Part shown: positions 3,734-62,417 of the stretch, piece by piece
Layout of the letters: the number at the start of each line of letters is the position of its first letter
Numbering within the stretch: position 1 is the first letter of the stretch
NCBI RefSeq assembly: GCF_053078305.1
Contig: NZ_CP166879.1
Direction: 5' to 3' (one strand)
Length of the DNA stretch: 64,000 bases
Made by a program: the position numbers and the translations under genes
The notes under the pieces: model-generated
The model's input: the letters and a program-made list of their open reading frames with translations, nothing else
Told to the model about the DNA's origin: nothing
The model's database searches: none

Positions 3734-5460
3734 GCCAGGGATTCCTGCACATGAAGACTGGCAGCATAAGCCTTCTGATAACGTTTTTTCGCTTCCGCAC
3801 GGGCAGGCTTGCCGGAGGACGTTCGGGGAATACTGTGGGGCGGCAACAGATCGATAGCCGCGGTCACGCCAAATTCGCTTTGGATCCGTGCCGCCAGCGC
3901 GTGGATAAGCTGCCCGCGACGTTCTTCATCGCTGATCCGACACTGGATCTGCAAAATGATTTTTTCCTGGGCGGTAACAAAAGCAATCGCATCGCCAGAA
4001 TGAATTTCCGGTTCCTGTTCCGCTATATATTCAATATCCTGCGGCCAGATATTACGGCCACGAATAATAATCAGATCTTTAATGCGTCCGGTGACATACA
4101 GATAACCGTCCAGCAGATAACCGAGGTCGCCAGTGTCTAACCAGCCCGTCGCGGCAATCTCGTCTTGCGAAGCCTGGTCGCCAAAGTAACCGCTCATCAG
4201 ACTGGGACCGGAGATGCAAATATGGCCTACCACACGTTCCGCGACCGGCATACCTGCTTCATTGCGGATTTCAATACCATGTTCCGGCAACGCTTTGCCG
4301 CAGTTGACGAAAGTCGATACGGCGCGTGTCTCTGCACCCGGCGCGACGGCTTTACCCTGATATTCGAGGATGTCGCGATCCACTTCGTTAACCACAACCC
4401 CGGAGGCTTCATCAGAGAAGCTGACAGCCAGCGCATTTTCTGCCAGTCCGTAGCACGGCATGAAAGTTTTATTGTCAAAGTTAACCTGACGGAAACATTC
4501 AGCGAATTGATGGAGTTGTTCTGCGGAGATGGGTTCTGCACCAATACCAGCGACGCGCCAGCAGGAAAGATCCAGTTCAGCGAGATCTTTTTCATTCACG
4601 CGGCGCTGGCACAATTCATAGCCAAACGGCGGCGCAACGGAAACGGTGCCGCGATTTTTACTGATCAATTTAAGCCATTGCAGAGGACGCATGGCAAAAT
4701 CCTGAGTGCGCAAATAATCTACTGAAAGTTGCGTGGCGACCGGGGTCAGGAGAAAGCCGACCAGTCCCATATCATGGTAGAAAGGCAGCCAGGAGACGCA
4801 GCGGTCGCCAGGGCGTAATTTAATGCCGTCGTGGCTTATAGCACGTAGATTAGCCATCACTTCGCGATGGGTGATAATGACGCCACGGGGAAAACGGGTG
4901 CTGCCGGAGGTGTACTGGAGGTAGGCGATATCGTTCGGAACTGGACGCTGGAGCGCAACATCAGCTTCCGGTAATGCCTTAAACCAGGCGTGGCTTAATA
5001 CATGCAATTCGGGGTTGTTATGCGTGGCGGCATTGACCAGCGGCAACCACTCATCACCAGTGATAATGGCAGCGGGCTGGCAACTTGCCAGTAAACCCTG
5101 CAGTTTGGCGCTCCAGGAATCCCGCTGACCGACGCCCATTGGAATCGCCAACGGGACGGCGACTAAGCCGGCATACTGGCAGGAAAAAAAAGCCTCTACG
5201 AACCCGCTACTGGTTTCGGCAATCAGCGCCACGCGATCGCCTTTTTTCAGGTTCAGCGATAACAACCGCTTCGCACCAGCTTCGGCACGTGCTTTTAACG
5301 TCTGATATTCCAGTTGATCTTCAAGTTGGCAACGTCTGTCATAAAAATTCATTCCGGCGCTACTCAGAGCGGCGTAGTCCAAAGCATCAACCAGCGTTGG
5401 AAAATCGGCATAGCGCATAGGTAGGGAATGCGTAAAGATTTTATTAGACATATACACCAC
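3730..5460 (-). CDS. fatty acyl-AMP ligase / acyl-ACP synthetase (adenylate-forming enzyme)
   Basis: 576 aa; AMP-binding motif YTSGSTRFPRGV; single adenylation domain with no condensation or thiolation domain. Confidence 0.8.
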   Translation of the reverse strand: MVYMSNKIFTHSLPMRYADFPTLVDALDYAALSSAGMNFYDRRCQLEDQLEYQTLKARAEAGAKRLLSLNLKKGDRVALIAETSSGFVEAFFSCQYAGLVAVPLAIPMGVGQRDSWSAKLQGLLASCQPAAIITGDEWLPLVNAATHNNPELHVLSHAWFKALPEADVALQRPVPNDIAYLQYTSGSTRFPRGVIITHREVMANLRAISHDGIKLRPGDRCVSWLPFYHDMGLVGFLLTPVATQLSVDYLRTQDFAMRPLQWLKLISKNRGTVSVAPPFGYELCQRRVNEKDLAELDLSCWRVAGIGAEPISAEQLHQFAECFRQVNFDNKTFMPCYGLAENALAVSFSDEASGVVVNEVDRDILEYQGKAVAPGAETRAVSTFVNCGKALPEHGIEIRNEAGMPVAERVVGHICISGPSLMSGYFGDQASQDEIAATGWLDTGDLGYLLDGYLYVTGRIKDLIIIRGRNIWPQDIEYIAEQEPEIHSGDAIAFVTAQEKIILQIQCRISDEERRGQLIHALAARIQSEFGVTAAIDLLPPHSIPRTSSGKPARAEAKKRYQKAYAASLHVQESLA

Positions 5461-50359: not shown

Positions 50360-50620
50360 TTACGGACGGGACTGTGCAATACGCGCCTGCAGCCAGGCTT
50401 CCACTTCGCTTTTCAGCCATCGGGAGCTACGGCCCAGTTTGATGGGGGCAGGAAAGGCACCATCCTTGATGAGCTTGTAAAACCATTTATCGGTCAGGCC
50501 GGTCAGCTGAGTGATAAACGACATGTCGACCATCTGGTCATCCATCAGTGAAACTGGGGTATTCATGAAAATGTTCCTCCGGATGTTGTTAATCTCAACC
50601 AGCGTTGGTGATGAAAACAA
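50360..50620 (-). CDS. alpA: AlpA-family transcriptional regulator
   Basis: 86 aa with helix-turn-helix LTGLTDKWFYKLIKDGAFPAPIKLGRSSRW. Confidence 0.8.
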   Translation of the reverse strand: MFSSPTLVEINNIRRNIFMNTPVSLMDDQMVDMSFITQLTGLTDKWFYKLIKDGAFPAPIKLGRSSRWLKSEVEAWLQARIAQSRP

Positions 50621-53595: not shown

Positions 53596-53970
53596 GGTTC
53601 TGAGCGACAACTGCGGACTGGCTCTAATCTTTGCAGTCGGTTCCGGAGGCTACTTCAGAGGCACTATGCATTTTTTACGATGTGGTTACTCCGTATGAAC
53701 GAAACCATACGGAGACTTAACCATACATGACACACCAGTAAAACCCCTGATGGCTGCAACGGTGCTGCATGCGCTGGATGTCCATCTCTGCTTGCTGACA
53801 GTTTTTTACGTCGGTGGGCCATTGTGTGACAACCACAGTGCTGTAACAGCAGCCTGCCTGTTTTACCTTAACCCCATTCCAGATTTTTAACTGAACCGCC
53901 ATTCACACCCTGACCACGCTGCCCGTACCGGGACGCTTGCTGCCTGCGTGTCGTCTGGCGGCTGAGGAAT

Positions 53971-54360
53971 ATGACGATGTACGCAAAATCTTTTCTCGCA
54001 TTCGATGGCAACGGATGCCTGACCGTTGCCCGTACTGCACAGACAGCGCCTTACGATCGATACACCTGTCACCTTTGCGGCAGTGCGCTCAGATACCACC
54101 CGCAATGCGATACCGAACGTCCCTGGTTTGAACACACTGGCGAAGGGCTGGCTGAGCACGGTCATGAGTGCCCTTATGTCAGACCGGAGCGCAGAGAAAT
54201 ACTGTTGATTAAACGCTTACAGCAATGGGTACCGGATGCCTTACCCGTGGTGCGTAAAGCCAGCTGGCACTGCAGACAATGCCAGCACGATTATTATGGG
54301 GAGCGGTACTGCACACACTGTCATACAGGGCGTTTCAGTGAGGAGGCAGTGGCAGGATGA
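53971..54360 (+). CDS. Cys-rich zinc-ribbon-like protein, paralog A
   Basis: 129 aa; CHLC...WFEH...WHCRQC...CTHCHTG pattern; stop overlaps start of paralog B (ATGA). Confidence 0.5.
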   Translation: MTMYAKSFLAFDGNGCLTVARTAQTAPYDRYTCHLCGSALRYHPQCDTERPWFEHTGEGLAEHGHECPYVRPERREILLIKRLQQWVPDALPVVRKASWHCRQCQHDYYGERYCTHCHTGRFSEEAVAG

Positions 54361-54782
54361 ACGGTCTAAAAACGGGGCTGGGGATGACGCCGGGTGAGCA
54401 CATTATCAGTGCCGATTCTGCGCTCAGCAGAAATATCAGGCATTGTTTCTGCCTTTCCTGTCGTGGTCGGTTGATTTTGCAGACAGATGCTCAGGGGGCG
54501 TGGTTTGAGCATGATTTACATGCCCTGAGCGAGCAACAGAAGGCGGCCTGTGTGGTGCTGAATCCGGAAAAATCCCATCCTTACATTGATGATATGGCGA
54601 TGTTTTTATCGCCATTACCGGTCGTACTGGAGTGGCATTGTGTGATGTGTGAGCAGTTTTTTCATGGGAAGAAATTCTGTGAGGCCTGTGGTACGGGGAT
54701 TTATTGCAGAGCAACATGTACGAAGTCTGTTTACAGCTACCAGCCAGATTTGTACCAGGACTGCGGAGGTGCGAGTACTTAA
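54357..54782 (+). CDS. Cys-rich zinc-ribbon-like protein, paralog B
   Basis: 141 aa; same CxxC...WFEH...WHCxxC...CxxCGTG pattern as paralog A. Confidence 0.5.
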   Translation: MNGLKTGLGMTPGEHIISADSALSRNIRHCFCLSCRGRLILQTDAQGAWFEHDLHALSEQQKAACVVLNPEKSHPYIDDMAMFLSPLPVVLEWHCVMCEQFFHGKKFCEACGTGIYCRATCTKSVYSYQPDLYQDCGGAST

Positions 54783-55253
54783 TCCAAAATATCCGCTCTG
54801 CGCAGGGCGTTCAGAGGTATTGCCAGCCTGCATTTTATCCGGTGTTTCGCACCCACCCCGTTCGTGACACAAAGGCGCGACACCGGATATCCGCAGTCCT
54901 GCTTACCTGAATAAAACCCGGGGGATTGATTGTGTACTGTGGTGCGAAATCGCACCGTGATCGCGGATTCGCCGAATCTGCACTGTGGTGTCAATAAACC
55001 ACACGCGAGAGTCCTCTCCGTATTGATCAGTGCATCAGGACGATTTCTGCATTGTTAATCCAGGGGCTGCATTATTCATTTCCCTGCTAATGGACGTTAC
55101 ATCCTAGATATTCATGATCCTGATTTCCCTGAGCAGTATCAGCGCTTATTGGAGCGTCTGGATTATCTGACGAAGCCCGGTACTAAAGCATCAGGCCAGC
55201 GTAACTCTGGCTACAGCGGTTTTTGACCTGTTGTAACTGTAAGGTGATTTATT

Positions 55254-55820
55254 ATGTATACAGAATCAAACGTTAAGCTTTCCTGTAACGCCCTCTGGCA
55301 AAAGTGTGTCCTTGCAACTCTGTATCGGGCTGCAGCCACACATCCTGAAATTAAATTATTACAATTTAAATTAATACCTTGCCCTGGTATTAATAAGGCC
55401 ATTCCCTCTCTGATGGCTGATTTTACTGGTGAACTGCATAGACTCATTTCTGAATATTTGCAGTGCAAGCGACGTAAAGATAAATCTGTTGAGCCCACCC
55501 CTTTATATTATCTCTGGAGTAGGGAGGCTGTGGCTAACGGTACCACTCCTTATCTTATGGTGCTGCTACTTAATAATGATGTCTGGTGTAAGAGTCGTGA
55601 GGTGGTGGTTCTCAGAAATCTGATTGAGCAGGCGTGGGGAAAAGTATTGGGTGAAGATAACTCCATTACACATCTGGTTGTGTATCCTGAAGTGCTGTCG
55701 TTGGTATTTGATGCAGCTAACACATACAACGCTGAGCCTGGTGTACTGGAACAGACAGCCCGGGCTTACATTGAATCGCATGGTGCTGTTGAACGTTATC
55801 TTGGGTGTAGTGACTTTTAA
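55254..55820 (+). CDS. hypothetical protein
   Basis: 188-aa ORF in the decayed P4-like region; no recognised motif. Confidence 0.4.
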   Translation: MYTESNVKLSCNALWQKCVLATLYRAAATHPEIKLLQFKLIPCPGINKAIPSLMADFTGELHRLISEYLQCKRRKDKSVEPTPLYYLWSREAVANGTTPYLMVLLLNNDVWCKSREVVVLRNLIEQAWGKVLGEDNSITHLVVYPEVLSLVFDAANTYNAEPGVLEQTARAYIESHGAVERYLGCSDF

Positions 55821-56207
55821 CGTCAGGTGACGCATTGTCACTTCTGACCTGCTACCTGTACGCCGGAATATAATGGTCAGAGAGGCATATTTCGACGCCC
55901 CTAATCTGGGGCGTTTGATTCTGGATGTCTGGAACAATCCGGGCTTTGTGTCACCGGGCGCATCAAAGCAGTACCACCCGGGATGTGGCGCTGGATCGTC
56001 ATTTACCGGACTGCGAAGACATACTTAAAGAGGTGATATGGGCGTTCAGTGATTTTGTCCGCGATAATCGTGGTGTGTATGATCCGGAAGCCCGTTACCC
56101 CGCCGGTAATACCTGGTATCCCGTAACAGGCCAGTTCTGAAAGCACAGCTCAGCAGATTCCCCGCATTCGCACAATCTTCATAAATCTCACAGAGGACAT
56201 TCTGACC

Positions 56208-56516
56208 ATGTTGACTACAACAAGCCACGACAGCGTATTTCTGCGTGCCGATAATTCCCTGATTGACATGAACTATATCACCAGTTTCACCGGTATGACC
56301 GACAGAGGGTTTTATAAGCTGATCAGTGAAGATTCATCAAGCCGGGCCGATCCAGCCGCAGGTATAAAAGCGAAGTGTCACAGTAGATACAGTAACGAAT
56401 CGAAGAATCACGGGGGCAGAAGTATGAAACGTGTTGTGATACCGGTACGCTGGCAATGTTCAACGTGTCAGCGCTGGTATTGTGGCGCTGTTCCCTGGTG
56501 CTGGTCCCCCCCGTGA
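56208..56516 (+). pseudogene. AlpA-like regulator remnant
   Basis: N-terminus DNSLIDMNYITSFTGMTDRGFYKLI parallels AlpA at 50360-50620 (DDQMVDMSFITQLTGLTDKWFYKLI) and then diverges into unrelated sequence. Confidence 0.5.
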
Positions 56517-57712
56517 ATCTTCCTGCGTCCCCTCCGGTCAGCCGGCACTTTGTCATCCTGACTGATTCATCATTCCTTTCATATTGCCAGTCACAGCTGC
56601 TTGCATCGAACCGTACTTGTGTTGATGCGTCTGCACCGACTTAACCAAATTCAACAGAGATAAAATAGTGCAAATCACCGAAGCCTTACTTTCAGAGCCG
56701 GGGGAAATCCGGCGTTTTGTTCAGCAGGCGGTGGATCACTGGCCGCATCTGCTGGCAATCCACTTCACACTTCATTCGACCAGAGTAAATATTGATGATT
56801 ACTAGATTCGTGTATTTTATCAGGCATTTTACTTGCGAATAAATCCCCTTGTTATCCAGCGAAACCACACCGGTAGCTATTACCATATGTCGTAATACAC
56901 TAGTTACAGGAAAAACATGCAGGTTCCGCAATACGTTGTGTGTTGCTGCTTAGTCAGGATCTTTTCTTCCATGCGAGATACGACAACACTTTTGAGGAAG
57001 GATGTTCGTAACTGGTAGAGTTACTACAACAGGCATGGGAGGCTCCGGCTCTGACAGACATTGTACTGTGGAATGTTGTTACAGGTTGGGGCGGCAACCG
57101 TGCCAGGAGACTATGAGCCGTTCACGGCATTAAAGGCCACACTTCAGTCGTTTACATTCCCTGTGGTGGCAGGCATCTTCCGTTAAGGCGTCAGAGCGTT
57201 ACCAACGTTATGTTGTCATGGCTCACCTTTCATAGTCGATGCTTATCTGGTGACTGAAACTAGCCGCAGATAAAGAGTGTGAAGTTGATACCATGGAGTG
57301 GAGTGACGTGCAGGCAGGAGATTCGCTCTATGCAGGGTTGTGAGATGAATTCAAACCGGCTGTCAGCGCCAGTGATATTTGAAGATTCGTCCGGTTGTTA
57401 TCCAGTGTGCATTAAAAACCCAGACATTATGGACAATACAACGGCTTCCATAACAGGGAGGAGCCTGTTTATTATCCGGGCGTAATGACTCACCTTTGTG
57501 GGCTTTTTCCCGTCGCGCTTTTAACGTTGAAGGCATTTTCTGCCTGCCGATTCAGGACAGCGACAAAAGCCATATCAGACTATTGGTCAATGATGACCAG
57601 CGTCTGGAGTAGATGATAAGCCAAATTGATAAGCTGGAATATGTGATGAAAGTGCAACGTAATCAGTCCAATCCGACGATGTTTAACAAGAGTACGGTGT
57701 TTTTTCAGTAAG

Positions 57713-58498
57713 TCATTCGTCTTCTGAATCAGGTGTAATGATCTTTACAGAAGCATTCCGGCAGTGCGTAACATAATCTGCCGGTAACGGACGATCGCTA
57801 ATCAGAACATCAAATGCAGAGAGCGGTGCGAGGCTGGCAGAGGCTACTTCATCGAACAAGGCGTGGCGGGCGAGCAAAATTTTCCGTAGTCCACGGGCCA
57901 TCGCTTTACGCTTAGTGGCAAGATCTTCGGGATTAAACCAGCTGACGCCAAAGTGATCATGTACACCGCTGGCGGAAATAAATATTTTTCGCGGATTGAG
58001 AGAGTCTAATGGCGAAGAGTTACTGGCATCGTAAAAAGCATCACTTCTGGCACGATACGTACCACCACAAAGTATTGCTGTCACATTAGGTTTTTCATTC
58101 AACGCAACAAAGACACGATGTGAGTAACAGATGCCAGTGAAGGTGATTGCATCCGGGATCATGCTTATAACGAGCGGTATCTCCTGGCCATTATCAAAGA
58201 AGATCAGATCATTTTCATTAACCATTCCGGCGGCCAGAATTGCAATAGGTAAGTCATCACGATGATTTCTCGGAACGTCCTGGATTACTGGCATGGATGG
58301 TGCGGGTTTATGCACCATTACAATATAGCCACCCAGTAGGGTCAGTGGCAGAGGTTCATCTTCCTGATGGAGATCGCGACGAATAGTCATTACAGAAACT
58401 TCCAGCATTCGTGCCGCGTCTTTCAAATGGATTCTGTCGGTTTTCTTAAGTATTTCAATCAAACGTCGGATACGCTCTTTTTGCTTCGTTTCCATCAA
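57713..58498 (-). CDS. deoQ: DeoR-family transcriptional regulator of the deoxyribose operon
   Basis: 261 aa with N-terminal DeoR-type helix-turn-helix; divergent from the kinase-permease operon. Confidence 0.75.
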   Translation of the reverse strand: MMETKQKERIRRLIEILKKTDRIHLKDAARMLEVSVMTIRRDLHQEDEPLPLTLLGGYIVMVHKPAPSMPVIQDVPRNHRDDLPIAILAAGMVNENDLIFFDNGQEIPLVISMIPDAITFTGICYSHRVFVALNEKPNVTAILCGGTYRARSDAFYDASNSSPLDSLNPRKIFISASGVHDHFGVSWFNPEDLATKRKAMARGLRKILLARHALFDEVASASLAPLSAFDVLISDRPLPADYVTHCRNASVKIITPDSEDE

Positions 58499-58800
58499 CG
58501 CTCTCTCCGTAAAAATGTTATAAAAATAACATTATGGCATTAGTAAACATTGTTTTAGTTACCATACTATACGACCGACCCTTTGAAATGAAAAGGGTAT
58601 AGACTGCTGAATTTTCGGTATTAATCCTGTTAGGTTGCTTATGATTAGATAGTGTTGGCCTGAGTGATAAGACTGGAAGTCTATTAAATAAACATCGGGT
58701 TGATGTGCTAATCGCGATCTCAGTCACAAATGATGCAAAAGTAACATGCTAATGTTATTTAAATACCATTGTTATGCGAAAGTTTATAAGAGGTAGTGAA

Positions 58801-59721
58801 ATGGACATTGCAGTTATTGGTTCCAATATGGTGGATCTCATTACTTACACTAATCAGATGCCTAAAGAAGGAGAAACTCTGGAAGCACCTGCCTTCAAAA
58901 TCGGATGTGGTGGGAAAGGTGCTAATCAAGCGGTGGCGGCGGCTAAATTGAATTCAAAAGTCCTGATGCTGACTAAAGTAGGTGATGATATTTTTGCGGA
59001 TAATACTATTCGTAATCTTGAATCTTGGGGAATTAATACCACTTATGTTGAGAAAGTCCCCTGTACCAGCAGTGGTGTTGCGCCGATCTTTGTTAATGCT
59101 AACTCGAGCAATAGTATTTTAATAATTAAGGGGGCGAATAAATTTCTTTCCCCGGAAGATATCGATCGAGCTGCAGAAGATCTGAAAAAATGCAAATTGA
59201 TCGTTTTACAACTGGAAGTTCAACTGGAAACAGTTTACCACGCGATTGAGTTTGGTAAGAAAAATGGTATTGAAGTGTTATTAAATCCGGCTCCGGCATT
59301 GCGTGAGTTAGATATGTCTTATGCCTGCAAATGTGATTTCTTTATCCCGAATGAAACAGAACTGGAAATATTAACCGGTATGTCGGTTGATACTTATGAT
59401 CATATTCGTTTGGCCGCACGTTCGTTAGTTGATAAAGGGCTGAACAATATTATTGTTACCATGAGCGAAAAAGGCGCATTATGGATGACCCGTGATCAGG
59501 AAGTCCATGTTCCTGCATTCAAAGTAAATGCTGTTGATACTAGTGGCGCTGGTGACGCATTTATTGGTTGCTTTTCCCATTATTATGTTCAAAGCGGTGA
59601 TGTTGAAGCCGCTTTGAAAAAAGCCGCTCTCTTTGCCGCTTTCAGCGTCACAGGGAAAGGTACGCAATCATCTTATCCGAGTATTGAACAATTTAATGAA
59701 TTTTTAACCTTAAACGAATAA
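58801..59721 (+). CDS. deoK: deoxyribokinase (ribokinase/PfkB family)
   Basis: Start at MDIAVIGS after AGAGG ribosome-binding site; GG dipeptide and C-terminal GAGD motif of PfkB kinases. Confidence 0.75.
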   Translation: MDIAVIGSNMVDLITYTNQMPKEGETLEAPAFKIGCGGKGANQAVAAAKLNSKVLMLTKVGDDIFADNTIRNLESWGINTTYVEKVPCTSSGVAPIFVNANSSNSILIIKGANKFLSPEDIDRAAEDLKKCKLIVLQLEVQLETVYHAIEFGKKNGIEVLLNPAPALRELDMSYACKCDFFIPNETELEILTGMSVDTYDHIRLAARSLVDKGLNNIIVTMSEKGALWMTRDQEVHVPAFKVNAVDTSGAGDAFIGCFSHYYVQSGDVEAALKKAALFAAFSVTGKGTQSSYPSIEQFNEFLTLNE

Positions 59722-59748: not shown

Positions 59749-61065
59749 ATGAACGATAAAAACATCATTCAGATGCCTGATGGGTATCTGAATAAGACTC
59801 CCTTGTTCCAGTTTATTTTGTTATCGTGTTTATTCCCGCTATGGGGATGCGCAGCTGCATTAAATGACATATTAATCACTCAATTCAAAAGTGTATTTTC
59901 GCTAAGTAACTTTGCTTCAGCATTGGTGCAGAGCGCATTTTATGGAGGTTATTTTTTAATTGCAATACCAGCATCCCTTGTGATTAAAAAGACCAGTTAT
60001 AAGGTGGCAATTTTAATTGGCCTGACGCTGTATATTGGTGGTTGTACACTTTTTTTCCCTGCCTCGCATATGGCAACCTACACTATGTTCCTTGCGGCTA
60101 TTTTTGCGATTGCGATTGGCCTGAGCTTCCTTGAAACTGCAGCGAACACATACAGTTCGATGATTGGTCCAAAAGCCTACGCTACATTGCGGCTCAATAT
60201 CAGCCAGACCTTTTATCCGATTGGTGCTGCGTCTGGTATTTTATTGGGCAAATATCTGGTTTTCTCCGAGGGGGAAAGCCTTGAGAAGCAGATGTCCGGA
60301 ATGAACGCCGGGCAAATTCACAACTTTAAGGTGCTGATGTTAGAGAACACCCTTGAACCGTATAAGTATATGATTATGATTCTGGTTGTGGTCATGGTGT
60401 TGTTCCTTTTAACCCGCTTCCCAACCTGTAAAGTGGCACAGACAAGTCACCATAAACGCCCGTCAGCAATGGATACGCTGCGCTATCTGGCTAGAAATCC
60501 GCGCTTTCGTCGTGGTATTGTGGCTCAATTCCTTTATGTGGGTATGCAGGTCGCAGTATGGTCATTTACCATCCGTCTGGCGCTGGAGTTGGGCGATATC
60601 AACGAACGTGATGCTTCAAACTTCATGGTCTACAGCTTTGCCTGCTTCTTTATTGGCAAGTTTATAGCCAACATCCTTATGACACGTTTTAATCCGGAAA
60701 AAGTCCTGATTCTCTATTCCGTTATAGGGGCGCTGTTTCTGGCATATGTTGCACTGGCTCCAAGTTTCAGTGCGGTCTATGTCGCCGTCCTGGTAAGTGT
60801 TTTGTTTGGCCCTTGCTGGGCGACGATCTATGCAGGAACACTGGATACAGTTGATAACCAACATACAGAAATGGCAGGAGCAGTCATTGTTATGGCTATT
60901 GTTGGCGCAGCGGTGGTTCCGGCAATTCAGGGATATATTGCAGATATGTTCCACTCACTACAGCTTTCATTCCTGGTTTCTATGCTCTGTTTTGTCTATG
61001 TCGGTGTCTACTTCTGGCGTGAAAGCAAAGTACGTAATGCACTGGCTGAAGTCACAGAGTCCTGA
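59749..61065 (+). CDS. deoP: deoxyribose permease (FucP-like MFS transporter)
   Basis: 438-aa polytopic membrane protein between the kinase and the mutarotase-like gene. Confidence 0.7.
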   Translation: MNDKNIIQMPDGYLNKTPLFQFILLSCLFPLWGCAAALNDILITQFKSVFSLSNFASALVQSAFYGGYFLIAIPASLVIKKTSYKVAILIGLTLYIGGCTLFFPASHMATYTMFLAAIFAIAIGLSFLETAANTYSSMIGPKAYATLRLNISQTFYPIGAASGILLGKYLVFSEGESLEKQMSGMNAGQIHNFKVLMLENTLEPYKYMIMILVVVMVLFLLTRFPTCKVAQTSHHKRPSAMDTLRYLARNPRFRRGIVAQFLYVGMQVAVWSFTIRLALELGDINERDASNFMVYSFACFFIGKFIANILMTRFNPEKVLILYSVIGALFLAYVALAPSFSAVYVAVLVSVLFGPCWATIYAGTLDTVDNQHTEMAGAVIVMAIVGAAVVPAIQGYIADMFHSLQLSFLVSMLCFVYVGVYFWRESKVRNALAEVTES

Positions 61066-61076
61066 GGAGAATCGTT

Positions 61077-62090
61077 ATGAGTACGCGTATTTATTTGTGG
61101 CGGGCGCTTTTTGGCGAAAAACCTCGTATCTTGCTGGAAAATAGTGATTTTACTGTCACGTCTTTTCGCTATGACAGTGGTGTCGAGGGGCTTAAAATTG
61201 CAAACAGTCGTGGACATTTAATTATTCTTCCCTGGATGGGGCAGATGATTTGGGATGCGCAATTTGATGGACACAGTCTCACCATGTGCAATATGTTTCG
61301 CCAGCCTAAACCGGCGACAGAGGTGATAGAAACCTATGGCTGTTTTGCCTTTCATTCAGGTTTGCTGGCTAATGGCTGCCCATCTGCGGAAGATACTCAT
61401 CTGCTACACGGTGAAATGGCCTGTGCCGCGATGGATGAAGCATGGATGGAATTAGAGGGAGATATGTTACGCCTTACCGGGCGTTACGAGTATGTAAAGG
61501 GATTCGGGCATCATTATCTGGCTCAGCCAGCAGTGGTCCTTCACAAATCCTCTACACTGTTCGATATTAAGATGGCCGTAACCAATCTGGCTTCTGTAGA
61601 TATGCCACTACAATATATGTGCCACATGAATTATGCATATATACCAAATGCTACGTTCAGTCAGAATATACCGGACGAAATATTAAGGTTGCGTGAATCA
61701 GTACCTTCGCATGTTAATCCCACCACTCAGTGGCTGGCGTTTAATCAACGGATTATGCAGGGAGAAGCCTCTCTGTCGACGCTGAATCAACCGGAGTTTT
61801 ATGATCCAGAAATTGTCTTCTTTGCAGACAAACTGGACGCTTACACAGATCAGCCAGAGTTTCGCATGATCGCTCCCGATGGCACTACGTTTGTTACTCG
61901 TTTCTCCAGTGCCGAACTAAATTATGTGACACGCTGGATCCTTTATAACGGCGAGCAGCAGGTAGCCGCCTTTGCATTACCTGCAACCTGTCGGCCTGAG
62001 GGATATCTTGCCGCGCAACGTAATGGCACGCTGATTCAGGTTGCACCGCAGCAAACGCGCACTTTTACAGTCACCACAGGAATTGAATAA
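61077..62090 (+). CDS. deoX: putative deoxyribose mutarotase / aldose epimerase-like protein
   Basis: 337 aa; fourth gene of the recalled deoQ-deoKPX arrangement. Confidence 0.6.
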   Translation: MSTRIYLWRALFGEKPRILLENSDFTVTSFRYDSGVEGLKIANSRGHLIILPWMGQMIWDAQFDGHSLTMCNMFRQPKPATEVIETYGCFAFHSGLLANGCPSAEDTHLLHGEMACAAMDEAWMELEGDMLRLTGRYEYVKGFGHHYLAQPAVVLHKSSTLFDIKMAVTNLASVDMPLQYMCHMNYAYIPNATFSQNIPDEILRLRESVPSHVNPTTQWLAFNQRIMQGEASLSTLNQPEFYDPEIVFFADKLDAYTDQPEFRMIAPDGTTFVTRFSSAELNYVTRWILYNGEQQVAAFALPATCRPEGYLAAQRNGTLIQVAPQQTRTFTVTTGIE

Positions 62091-62111
62091 CCACTTAAGG
62101 CCTGAACAGCG

Positions 62112-62144
62112 GCGCGCTTATCGTTAAGGTAAGCGCGTTTTTTT
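62112..62144 (+). terminator. intrinsic terminator after deoX
   Basis: Stem cgcgctta / taagcgcg with 9-nt loop followed by an 8-T run. Confidence 0.75.
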
Positions 62145-62417
62145 ACCCGCCAGGACAAGACTATGATAGCGTTGCCCTTATAGACGATCACATTATCGTC
62201 CACTCCAAATTTGTGCAACTACTGTAGAGTGGTGAACTCCACAGCTTCTTTTAGGATCTCAACTTCCATTGTTTTCTTACCGAGCAAGCACTGCAACTCT
62301 TTTATTTATTTGTAGTGGTCAACAAAAACTGGTCAGTAAGCGCTCCGCCTGTGACGTCTTGTGATGGTTGTCCTGTCTGGCAACAATCGCGTCCATCTAT
62401 ATTGATGGACACGAACG

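Follow-up and report, generated by a model that had tools for sequence, protein, structure and literature searches.

A pseudogene scar between a P4-like island module and the deoQKPX operon, probably left by the capture of an ilvN-deoQKPX-uhpA block

Introduction

The window analysed here (64,000 nucleotides of contig NZ_CP166879.1, RefSeq assembly GCF_053078305.1) contains an intact set of deoxyribose genes, separated from a P4-like module by a stretch of DNA, positions 56208-57712, that encodes nothing obvious. This raises the question of what the stretch consists of, how it came to lie beside deoQ, and from which genome the deo genes were derived. The initial annotation had read it as a decayed region, the scar at which the deoxyribose module joined a P4/CP4-57-like element.

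The same deoK (deoQKPX) operon is found on pathogenicity islands of E. coli such as PAI-I AL862, on tRNA-associated P4-like islands of both pathogenic and commensal strains. The PAI-I AL862-type operon adjoins vpe and Ag43-type modules and shows no essential difference; the window represents one of several left-hand contexts. Flanks resembling ilvN and uhpA were reportedly noted around the deoK operon by Lalioui and Le Bouguenec in 2001 and by Bernier-Febreau et al. in 2004. A small RNA screen of PAI-I AL862 (PMC3326304) makes no mention of deoQ, deoK, ilvN or alpA. In a review and in a genome paper, the deo operon is thought to come from Salmonella. We put at roughly 85% the probability that the interval is junction debris, which would have arisen when a captured ilvN-deoQKPX-uhpA block was joined to a P4/CP4-like element and which then decayed.

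Results

The sequence from 55800 to 58200 was read and all of its open reading frames were listed, and only short ORFs were present within 56208-57712. The interval is comprised of four pieces, in the order alpA', Gp2', segment X and ilvN' (Table 1), with zero intact genes. Four separate pseudogene pieces were matched by tblastn at E values of ~1e-23 to 1e-36, far beyond chance. Downstream of the AlpA-like ORF there are, as had been proposed, gene fragments without an intact gene. The 27-residue peptide quoted in the initial annotation as an example of protein-like sequence is present; it ends at 57708, is followed by a stop codon (57709-57711), and corresponds to residues 70-96 of IlvN.

Table 1. 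Features in and around the interval 56208-57712, in coordinates of the window. Primes denote pseudogenes.
Feature	Position	Strand	Basis and remarks
Intact AlpA paralogue	50363-50560	-	Pfam; elsewhere in the same window
C-terminal ~90 codons of the 186-aa hypothetical gene of the P4-like module	55870-56140	+	tblastn; N-terminus missing, one frameshift
Deletion-prone stretch	55984-56490	.	Bounded by the 10-bp direct repeat TGTGGCGCTG at 55984-55993 and 56481-56490
alpA pseudogene (alpA')	56208-~56428	+	tblastn, DNA alignment; the 102-aa ORF 56208-56516 is its frameshifted reading
Gp2 / YagK-YfjJ family pseudogene (Gp2')	56668-~57235	+	tblastn; near full length, several stops and frameshifts
Segment X, 238-bp scrap between Gp2' and ilvN'	57236-57473	.	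No protein match
ilvN pseudogene (ilvN'; ilvN nt 53-291)	57474-57711	+	blastn, tblastn, nhmmer; codons 1-17 missing
deoQ (DeoR-family repressor), intact	57713-58498	-	Converges on ilvN', 1 nt between stop codons
deoK, intact	58774-59721	+	ORF list
deoP, intact	59749-61065	+	ORF list
deoX, intact	61077-62090	+	ORF list
Right flank: terminator/intergenic DNA, then uhpA codons 1-21 (62163-62224)	62091-62224	+	blastn, multiple alignment; 1-nt deletion

A conserved ORF was looked for in the interval and was not found. The only CDS called here by PGAP in related genomes is a 45-aa stub of Gp2 (56668-56805), with homology that continues past its stop codon. As this CDS is not an intact gene, 56208-57712 holds no intact conserved gene, and the description of the region as decayed stands. 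The check for insertion sequences that had been suggested returned no transposase-like translation, and no remnant of an insertion sequence or transposon (transposase fragments, terminal inverted repeats) was identified within 56208-57712. There was no Rfam match in the interval. Consensus scans returned 9 promoter-like and 5 terminator-like sites (4.9 and 2.1 expected from shuffles), none of which was placed so as to imply a function, for example as a deoQ terminator. The interval is an ordinary pseudogene scar, in which the ilvN, alpA and hypothetical pieces are already flagged as pseudogenes in RefSeq. The small CDSs annotated in this stretch appear to be fragments, dead DNA within a widespread E. 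coli fitness island.

The 102-aa ORF was initially described as AlpA-like at its start and unrelated thereafter, probably a frameshifted or recombined copy. The comparison with an intact module on the E. coli plasmid NZ_CP010123.1, which encodes Gp2, a hypothetical protein (186 aa), AlpA (77 aa) and Gp2 (187 aa), bears out the frameshift. Residues 1-41 of the plasmid AlpA aligned by tblastn at 56208-56330 (frame 3, 83% identity), after which the frame is lost; the homology resumes at 56336-56416 (frame 2) with residues 48-74 at 78% identity, and the whole match has an E value of 7e-23. DNA alignment with E. coli GmM062 and SYNB1934 located a 13-bp (3+10) deletion at ~56331, by which the codons for GHFPKP are gone and the frame is shifted. 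An identical allele in E. coli MP1 is labelled 'AlpA family transcriptional regulator, frameshifted' by PGAP. The second segment contains two in-frame stops, TAG at 56384-56386 and TAA at 56393-56395. The TAG is also present in GmM062, where it cuts the protein to 63 aa, and is therefore older than the 13-bp deletion. From less damaged alleles PGAP calls a 63-65-aa helix-turn-helix protein in some strains.

The Pfam family PF05930 (Phage_AlpA) was recognised in the intact homologue (40.8 bits, cut-off 21) and in the 63-aa GmM062 allele (26.6 bits), and neither the ORF in the window nor its frame-repaired translation had a Pfam match at E<=1. The position of alpA', between the hypothetical gene and Gp2, is the same as in NZ_CP010123.1. 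The pseudogene thus resembles AlpA, the regulator of prophage CP4-57, over its first 41 residues, which take in the beginning of the helix-turn-helix, and differs in the deletion, the two stops and the absence of a Pfam match in any reading. By homology and module position, it descends from an AlpA-family gene.

Immediately upstream, the hypothetical protein hyp647 (L013) matched the window over residues 97-133 (55870-55977) and 130-181 (55955-56110), with an E value of 1.4e-23 by tblastn. The same remnant in three other loci (L002, L021, L022) is annotated by PGAP as 'frameshifted; incomplete; missing N-terminus'. For Gp2', the homologue gp2_1776 (L013) aligned over residues 1-70 (61% identity), 71-125 (45%) and 150-173 (46%), with combined tblastn E values of 1.7e-32 and 5e-5. 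Relative to the 187-aa homologue, the ORF ends after 45 codons and the homology runs on through stops and a frameshift to ~57192; no intact ~185-200-aa ORF of the Gp2 / YagK-YfjJ family (PF11726) is present in the stretch. Gp2' also matches an inovirus-type Gp2 gene at the DNA level. PGAP gives codons 1-45 the name 'UCP030791 family putative phage-derived protein' or 'hypothetical' (WP_001371476.1). The 45-aa product had no Pfam or NCBIfam match, and the ORF is the truncated N-terminus of Gp2, the first quarter of the 187-aa gene.

The last piece, ilvN', is ~91% identical to ilvN of K-12 at the DNA level (90.8% by blastn, 239 nt). By tblastn, K-12 IlvN aligned over residues 29-97 at 57505-57711 (87% identity, E=3.7e-36) and over residues 18-29 at 57473-57508. 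The pseudogene is cut short at its 5' end (codon 18), has lost 1 nt near 57505-57510 and carries a CAG>TAG change at 57610-57612. An nhmmer search with an ilvB-ilvN DNA profile built from seven species matched 57475-57711 only (E=2e-65), with a sharp left edge at 57474; neither this profile nor tblastn with IlvB revealed a remnant of ilvB left of 57474. The ATGGACAATACAAC of 57430 was considered as a real start of ilvN and discounted, as it lies outside the homology envelope and has no profile support. A 16-nt repeat (57215-57230 and 57482-57497) suggested another decayed copy of ilvN or a duplicated target; both were discounted, the alignment being at chance level (equalled by 164-522 of 1000 shuffles).

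RefSeq genomes list ilvN' among the pseudogenes ('acetolactate synthase small subunit / ACT domain-containing protein; frameshifted; internal stop'). A manually repaired translation scored 119.9 bits against the NF006036 cut-off of 128, and a full-length IlvN ORF (NF006036 equivalog) paired with ilvB is absent here. Compared with IlvN, the small subunit of acetolactate synthase I (NF006036, PF22629), the remnant retains a recognisable ACT domain; it has, however, neither a start codon nor the first 17 codons, is not accompanied by ilvB, and carries the frameshift and internal stop.

The four deo genes beyond it are intact, and the synteny of deoK, deoP and deoX is conserved (tblastn). On the right, 62088-62224 is homologous (85%) to K-12 3737-3877, which comprises the terminator in the ilvN-uhpA intergenic region and the first 63 nt of uhpA. 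A comparison of the two cassette ends for terminal repeats of the kind seen in composite transposons gave nothing beyond short matches of the sort expected by chance. Two 25-nt AT-rich inverted repeats (58510-58534 and 58750-58774; 84% complementary) between the divergent deoQ and deoK are candidates for DeoQ operators. The uhpA stub is followed by ~110 bp of further sequence (in the region 62225-62417) and then by an IS66-family element with ORFs from 62418; a GTAAGCG... motif at 62337 may be its inverted repeat. The RefSeq/PGAP annotation of two E. coli loci (L001, L002) names deoK 'rbsK ribokinase' and deoP 'fucP L-fucose:H+ symporter', generic names that mask the deoxyribose function.

A scan of species-representative genomes with DeoQ identified six loci, in Pseudocitrobacter, Citrobacter amalonaticus, Raoultella terrigena, two Enterobacter and one metagenome-assembled genome. 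DeoQ in the window is 77-85% identical to the proteins of these six species at the amino acid level. The ilvB-ilvN pair is convergent with deoQ in each of them; beyond deoK-deoP-deoX, four have an intact uhpA and C. amalonaticus keeps a uhpA fragment. A Salmonella enterica contig has the same order, with ilvN convergent on deoQ and uhpA after deoX. The window matches this native ilvBN-deoQKPX-uhpABC locus (Salmonella enterica, Citrobacter, Pseudocitrobacter, Raoultella, Enterobacter) in the order and direction of its genes, in having a single nucleotide between the ilvN and deoQ stop codons, and in the deoX-uhpA terminator. Unlike the native locus, it has no ilvB here, its ilvN is dead and cut at codon 18, its uhpA breaks off after codon 21, and beyond these ends lie P4-like DNA on the left and IS66 DNA on the right. 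Since ilvN' and the uhpA stub lie at opposite ends of the cassette, in the native ilvN-deo-uhpA order, the captured unit is likely to have been a piece of chromosome that began at ilvN codon 18 and ended at uhpA codon 21.

The ilvN-uhpA intergenic region of K-12, including its terminator hairpin (L003, 3737-3815), is homologous to the deoX-uhpA intergenic region (window 62088-62165) from the stop codon onward. As this homology begins right at the ilvN stop codon, K-12 looks like a precise empty site for deoQKPX.

To the left of the interval, Pfam analysis of the ORFs between 42438 and 55820 identified an Ag43-type autotransporter, a YeeP-like GTPase, a DUF3987 protein, Gp2/YagK-YfjJ genes and a pair of zinc-ribbon genes. 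The typical gene set is present, and the neighbourhood appears to be a P4/CP4-57-like integrative island module; a related genome shows a CbtA/YeeU, antirestriction, integrase and tRNA-Leu context. Two tandem genes with DUF7828 and a zinc ribbon (53971-54782) lie beside the Gp2/YagK-YfjJ genes in every P4-like module seen, namely those of the window, L001, L002, L010, L021, L022 and L026.

The left context is subject to continuing erosion. The 487 bp between the TGTGGCGCTG repeats (55994-56480), which include alpA', are missing from most genomes with this left context, and in L001 the blast coordinates overlap by 10 bp at this deletion. Five complete E. coli genomes, the only ones that otherwise cover all of 55200-58600, carry IS200C at 55914-55920, so the uninterrupted arrangement of the window across 55200-58600 is absent from the complete genomes in the collection. 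The IS elements nearby are strain-specific only: IS200C in the five genomes, an IS3 remnant (L012), and IS1397 in MP1.

The initial annotation had read the interval as the scar of the join between the deoxyribose module and a P4/CP4-57-like element. The join does lie inside the interval; its position is 57473/57474, between X and ilvN', and not at alpA. The cassette occurs in two E. coli lineages, which are 5-7% apart in Gp2', X and ilvN' and 1-4% apart in the deo genes. Both have in common the X/ilvN' junction, the 1-nt deletion and the TAG. Among 5426 complete genomes, X was found in 1554, and X, ilvN' and deoQ were contiguous in ~1544. With the junction and the ilvN' lesions present in both lineages and this many carriers, the scar must be old, and the pattern indicates a putative single ancient capture behind all E. 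coli copies.

The left boundary of the cassette varies, being 56627 where it adjoins acuR (L020), 56668 beside a uxaA remnant (L019), 57005 after an IS3 remnant (L012), and 57027 after a different Gp2 paralogue (L010). With the shared cassette starting at these positions elsewhere in E. coli, alpA' lies outside the unit that travels with deo. The DNA alignment with alpA-bearing relatives that had been suggested for locating the breakpoint showed MP1 to be collinear over 53889-56780 and to diverge inside Gp2. Because the MP1 homology stops there, the alpA' stretch and the cassette were probably joined by recombination within the 5' end of Gp2'.

Discussion

The observed anatomy, the native synteny in other genera, the junction and lesions shared by both lineages, and the alternative left boundaries are consistent with the capture of a chromosomal block, for which we infer the following order of events. 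A block reaching from ilvN codon 18 through deoQ-deoK-deoP-deoX to uhpA codon 21 would have been excised from a chromosome arranged as ilvB-ilvN, convergent with deoQ, followed by deoKPX and uhpA. Illegitimate recombination would then have fused it to a P4/CP4-like integrative element, at a point shortly after a Gp2 (YagK/YfjJ) gene, giving the junction 57473/57474. Selection would have kept the deo genes only. Decay would have followed at both stubs, ilvN and uhpA, and in the adjoining P4-like regulatory genes (alpA, Gp2 and the hypothetical gene), through nonsense mutations, small deletions, the 487-bp deletion and IS200C. With Gp2' as a homology arm, the cassette may have recombined into different P4-like modules, which here would have brought alpA' alongside.

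The chromosome that supplied the block may have belonged to the Escherichia lineage or to a very close sister, with deoQKPX ancestral in the ilvN-uhpA slot, later lost from the chromosome and surviving on islands. The ilvN stub acts as a built-in marker of origin. It groups with E. coli ilvN, and its ~91% identity to E. coli, as against ~76% to Salmonella ilvN, points to an Escherichia-lineage source and not to Salmonella. The three-point distances leave ~1.8-2.5% on the K-12 branch since the split with any outgroup, an estimate that comes from 239 nt of a decaying pseudogene and equals 4-6 substitutions. The deoX-uhpA terminator, whose homology with the DNA between ilvN and uhpA of K-12 sets in at the ilvN stop, and the resemblance of K-12 to an empty site also favour this source, as does a divergence of the deo genes from other genera that matches core-gene divergence.

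Against this, the scan of species representatives did not turn up the native arrangement in Escherichia, the variant DeoQ proteins of E. coli lie in island contexts, and ilvN' may have undergone gene conversion by a resident ilvN. As the native arrangement was not found in any Escherichia genome, we hold an Escherichia source at an even chance or marginally better. A variant of the same reading is that a foreign deo operon was first recombined into the ilvN-uhpA slot of E. coli via its flanks, and was then captured. A close donor was sought among the six DeoQ loci of the genome scan, and all are at most 85% identical; the DeoQ protein search likewise showed a gap between the E. coli variants (at least 89%) and all others (at most 85%).

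At about even odds, then, the cassette would be no Salmonella import and would instead represent a relic of an ilvN-deoQKPX-uhpA locus of Escherichia or a close sister, deleted cleanly from the chromosome and surviving via island capture. If so, the ilvN stub would be a molecular fossil of Escherichia's own deo locus. Its Escherichia-like sequence calls into question the usually quoted direction of transfer for a trait that has been connected with the ability of pathogenic E. coli to colonise the gut.

We considered whether part of the interval is functional: the core of segment X as a small RNA, peptide or cis element, the 45-aa 'UCP030791' ORF, or ilvN antisense as the 3' UTR of deoQ. Segment X has no counterpart in any native ilvBN-deo locus. 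Its core (57269-57397, 129 bp) has 2 differences between the cassette lineages, where ~7-8 would be expected at the flanking divergence of ~5.9% (p ~0.02, Poisson estimate). It has a counterpart of ~75% identity in IncK/IncI-type plasmids, in unannotated DNA that separates a DEAD-box helicase gene from trbC; the flanks of the core are not recognisable there. That the core is less diverged than its flanks and recognisable in plasmids could reflect constraint. However, the matching stretch of the plasmids is in turn a mosaic, made up of fragments that also occur 3' of SPATE genes. The ORF through the core is not kept in the plasmid copy, its homologues being confined to the cassette, and the protein matches of X are spurious ORFs of the same cassette only, so that we discounted X as a protein fragment.

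As a structured RNA, X was similarly rejected, having no Rfam match and a fold energy no better than shuffles on either strand or in either homologue (z +1.4 to -0.4). With its stop codon 1 nt from ilvN', the deoQ transcript must run into ilvN', which would suit a 3' UTR; a deoQ terminator inside ilvN' was looked for on the minus strand and none was predicted. The 45-aa ORF is accounted for as the N-terminus of Gp2. We therefore regard a function for any of these parts as improbable, and the interval is apparently non-functional.

The weakest reading, to which we give very little credence, is a direct import of the cassette, the stubs of ilvN and uhpA included, from Salmonella enterica. It is the view repeated in the literature, and Salmonella does have deoQ to deoX between a convergent ilvN and uhpA; the same synteny is, however, present in at least five other genera and therefore does not single out Salmonella. 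The identity of ilvN' to Salmonella ilvN is 75.7-76.5%, compared with 91.2% to K-12 ilvN, and other genera reach 78-83%. When either lineage is allowed to hold the ancestral base, ilvN' is 94% identical to K-12 and 79% to Salmonella. The deo genes have 76-83% DNA identity to those of Salmonella, no closer than to Citrobacter or Pseudocitrobacter, and no closer than the vertically inherited ilvB, ilvN, uhpA and uhpB of K-12 are to their Salmonella counterparts (81-86%). In a search of 5.8 billion proteins, the best DeoQ outside E. coli was 85% identical and that of Salmonella 83%.
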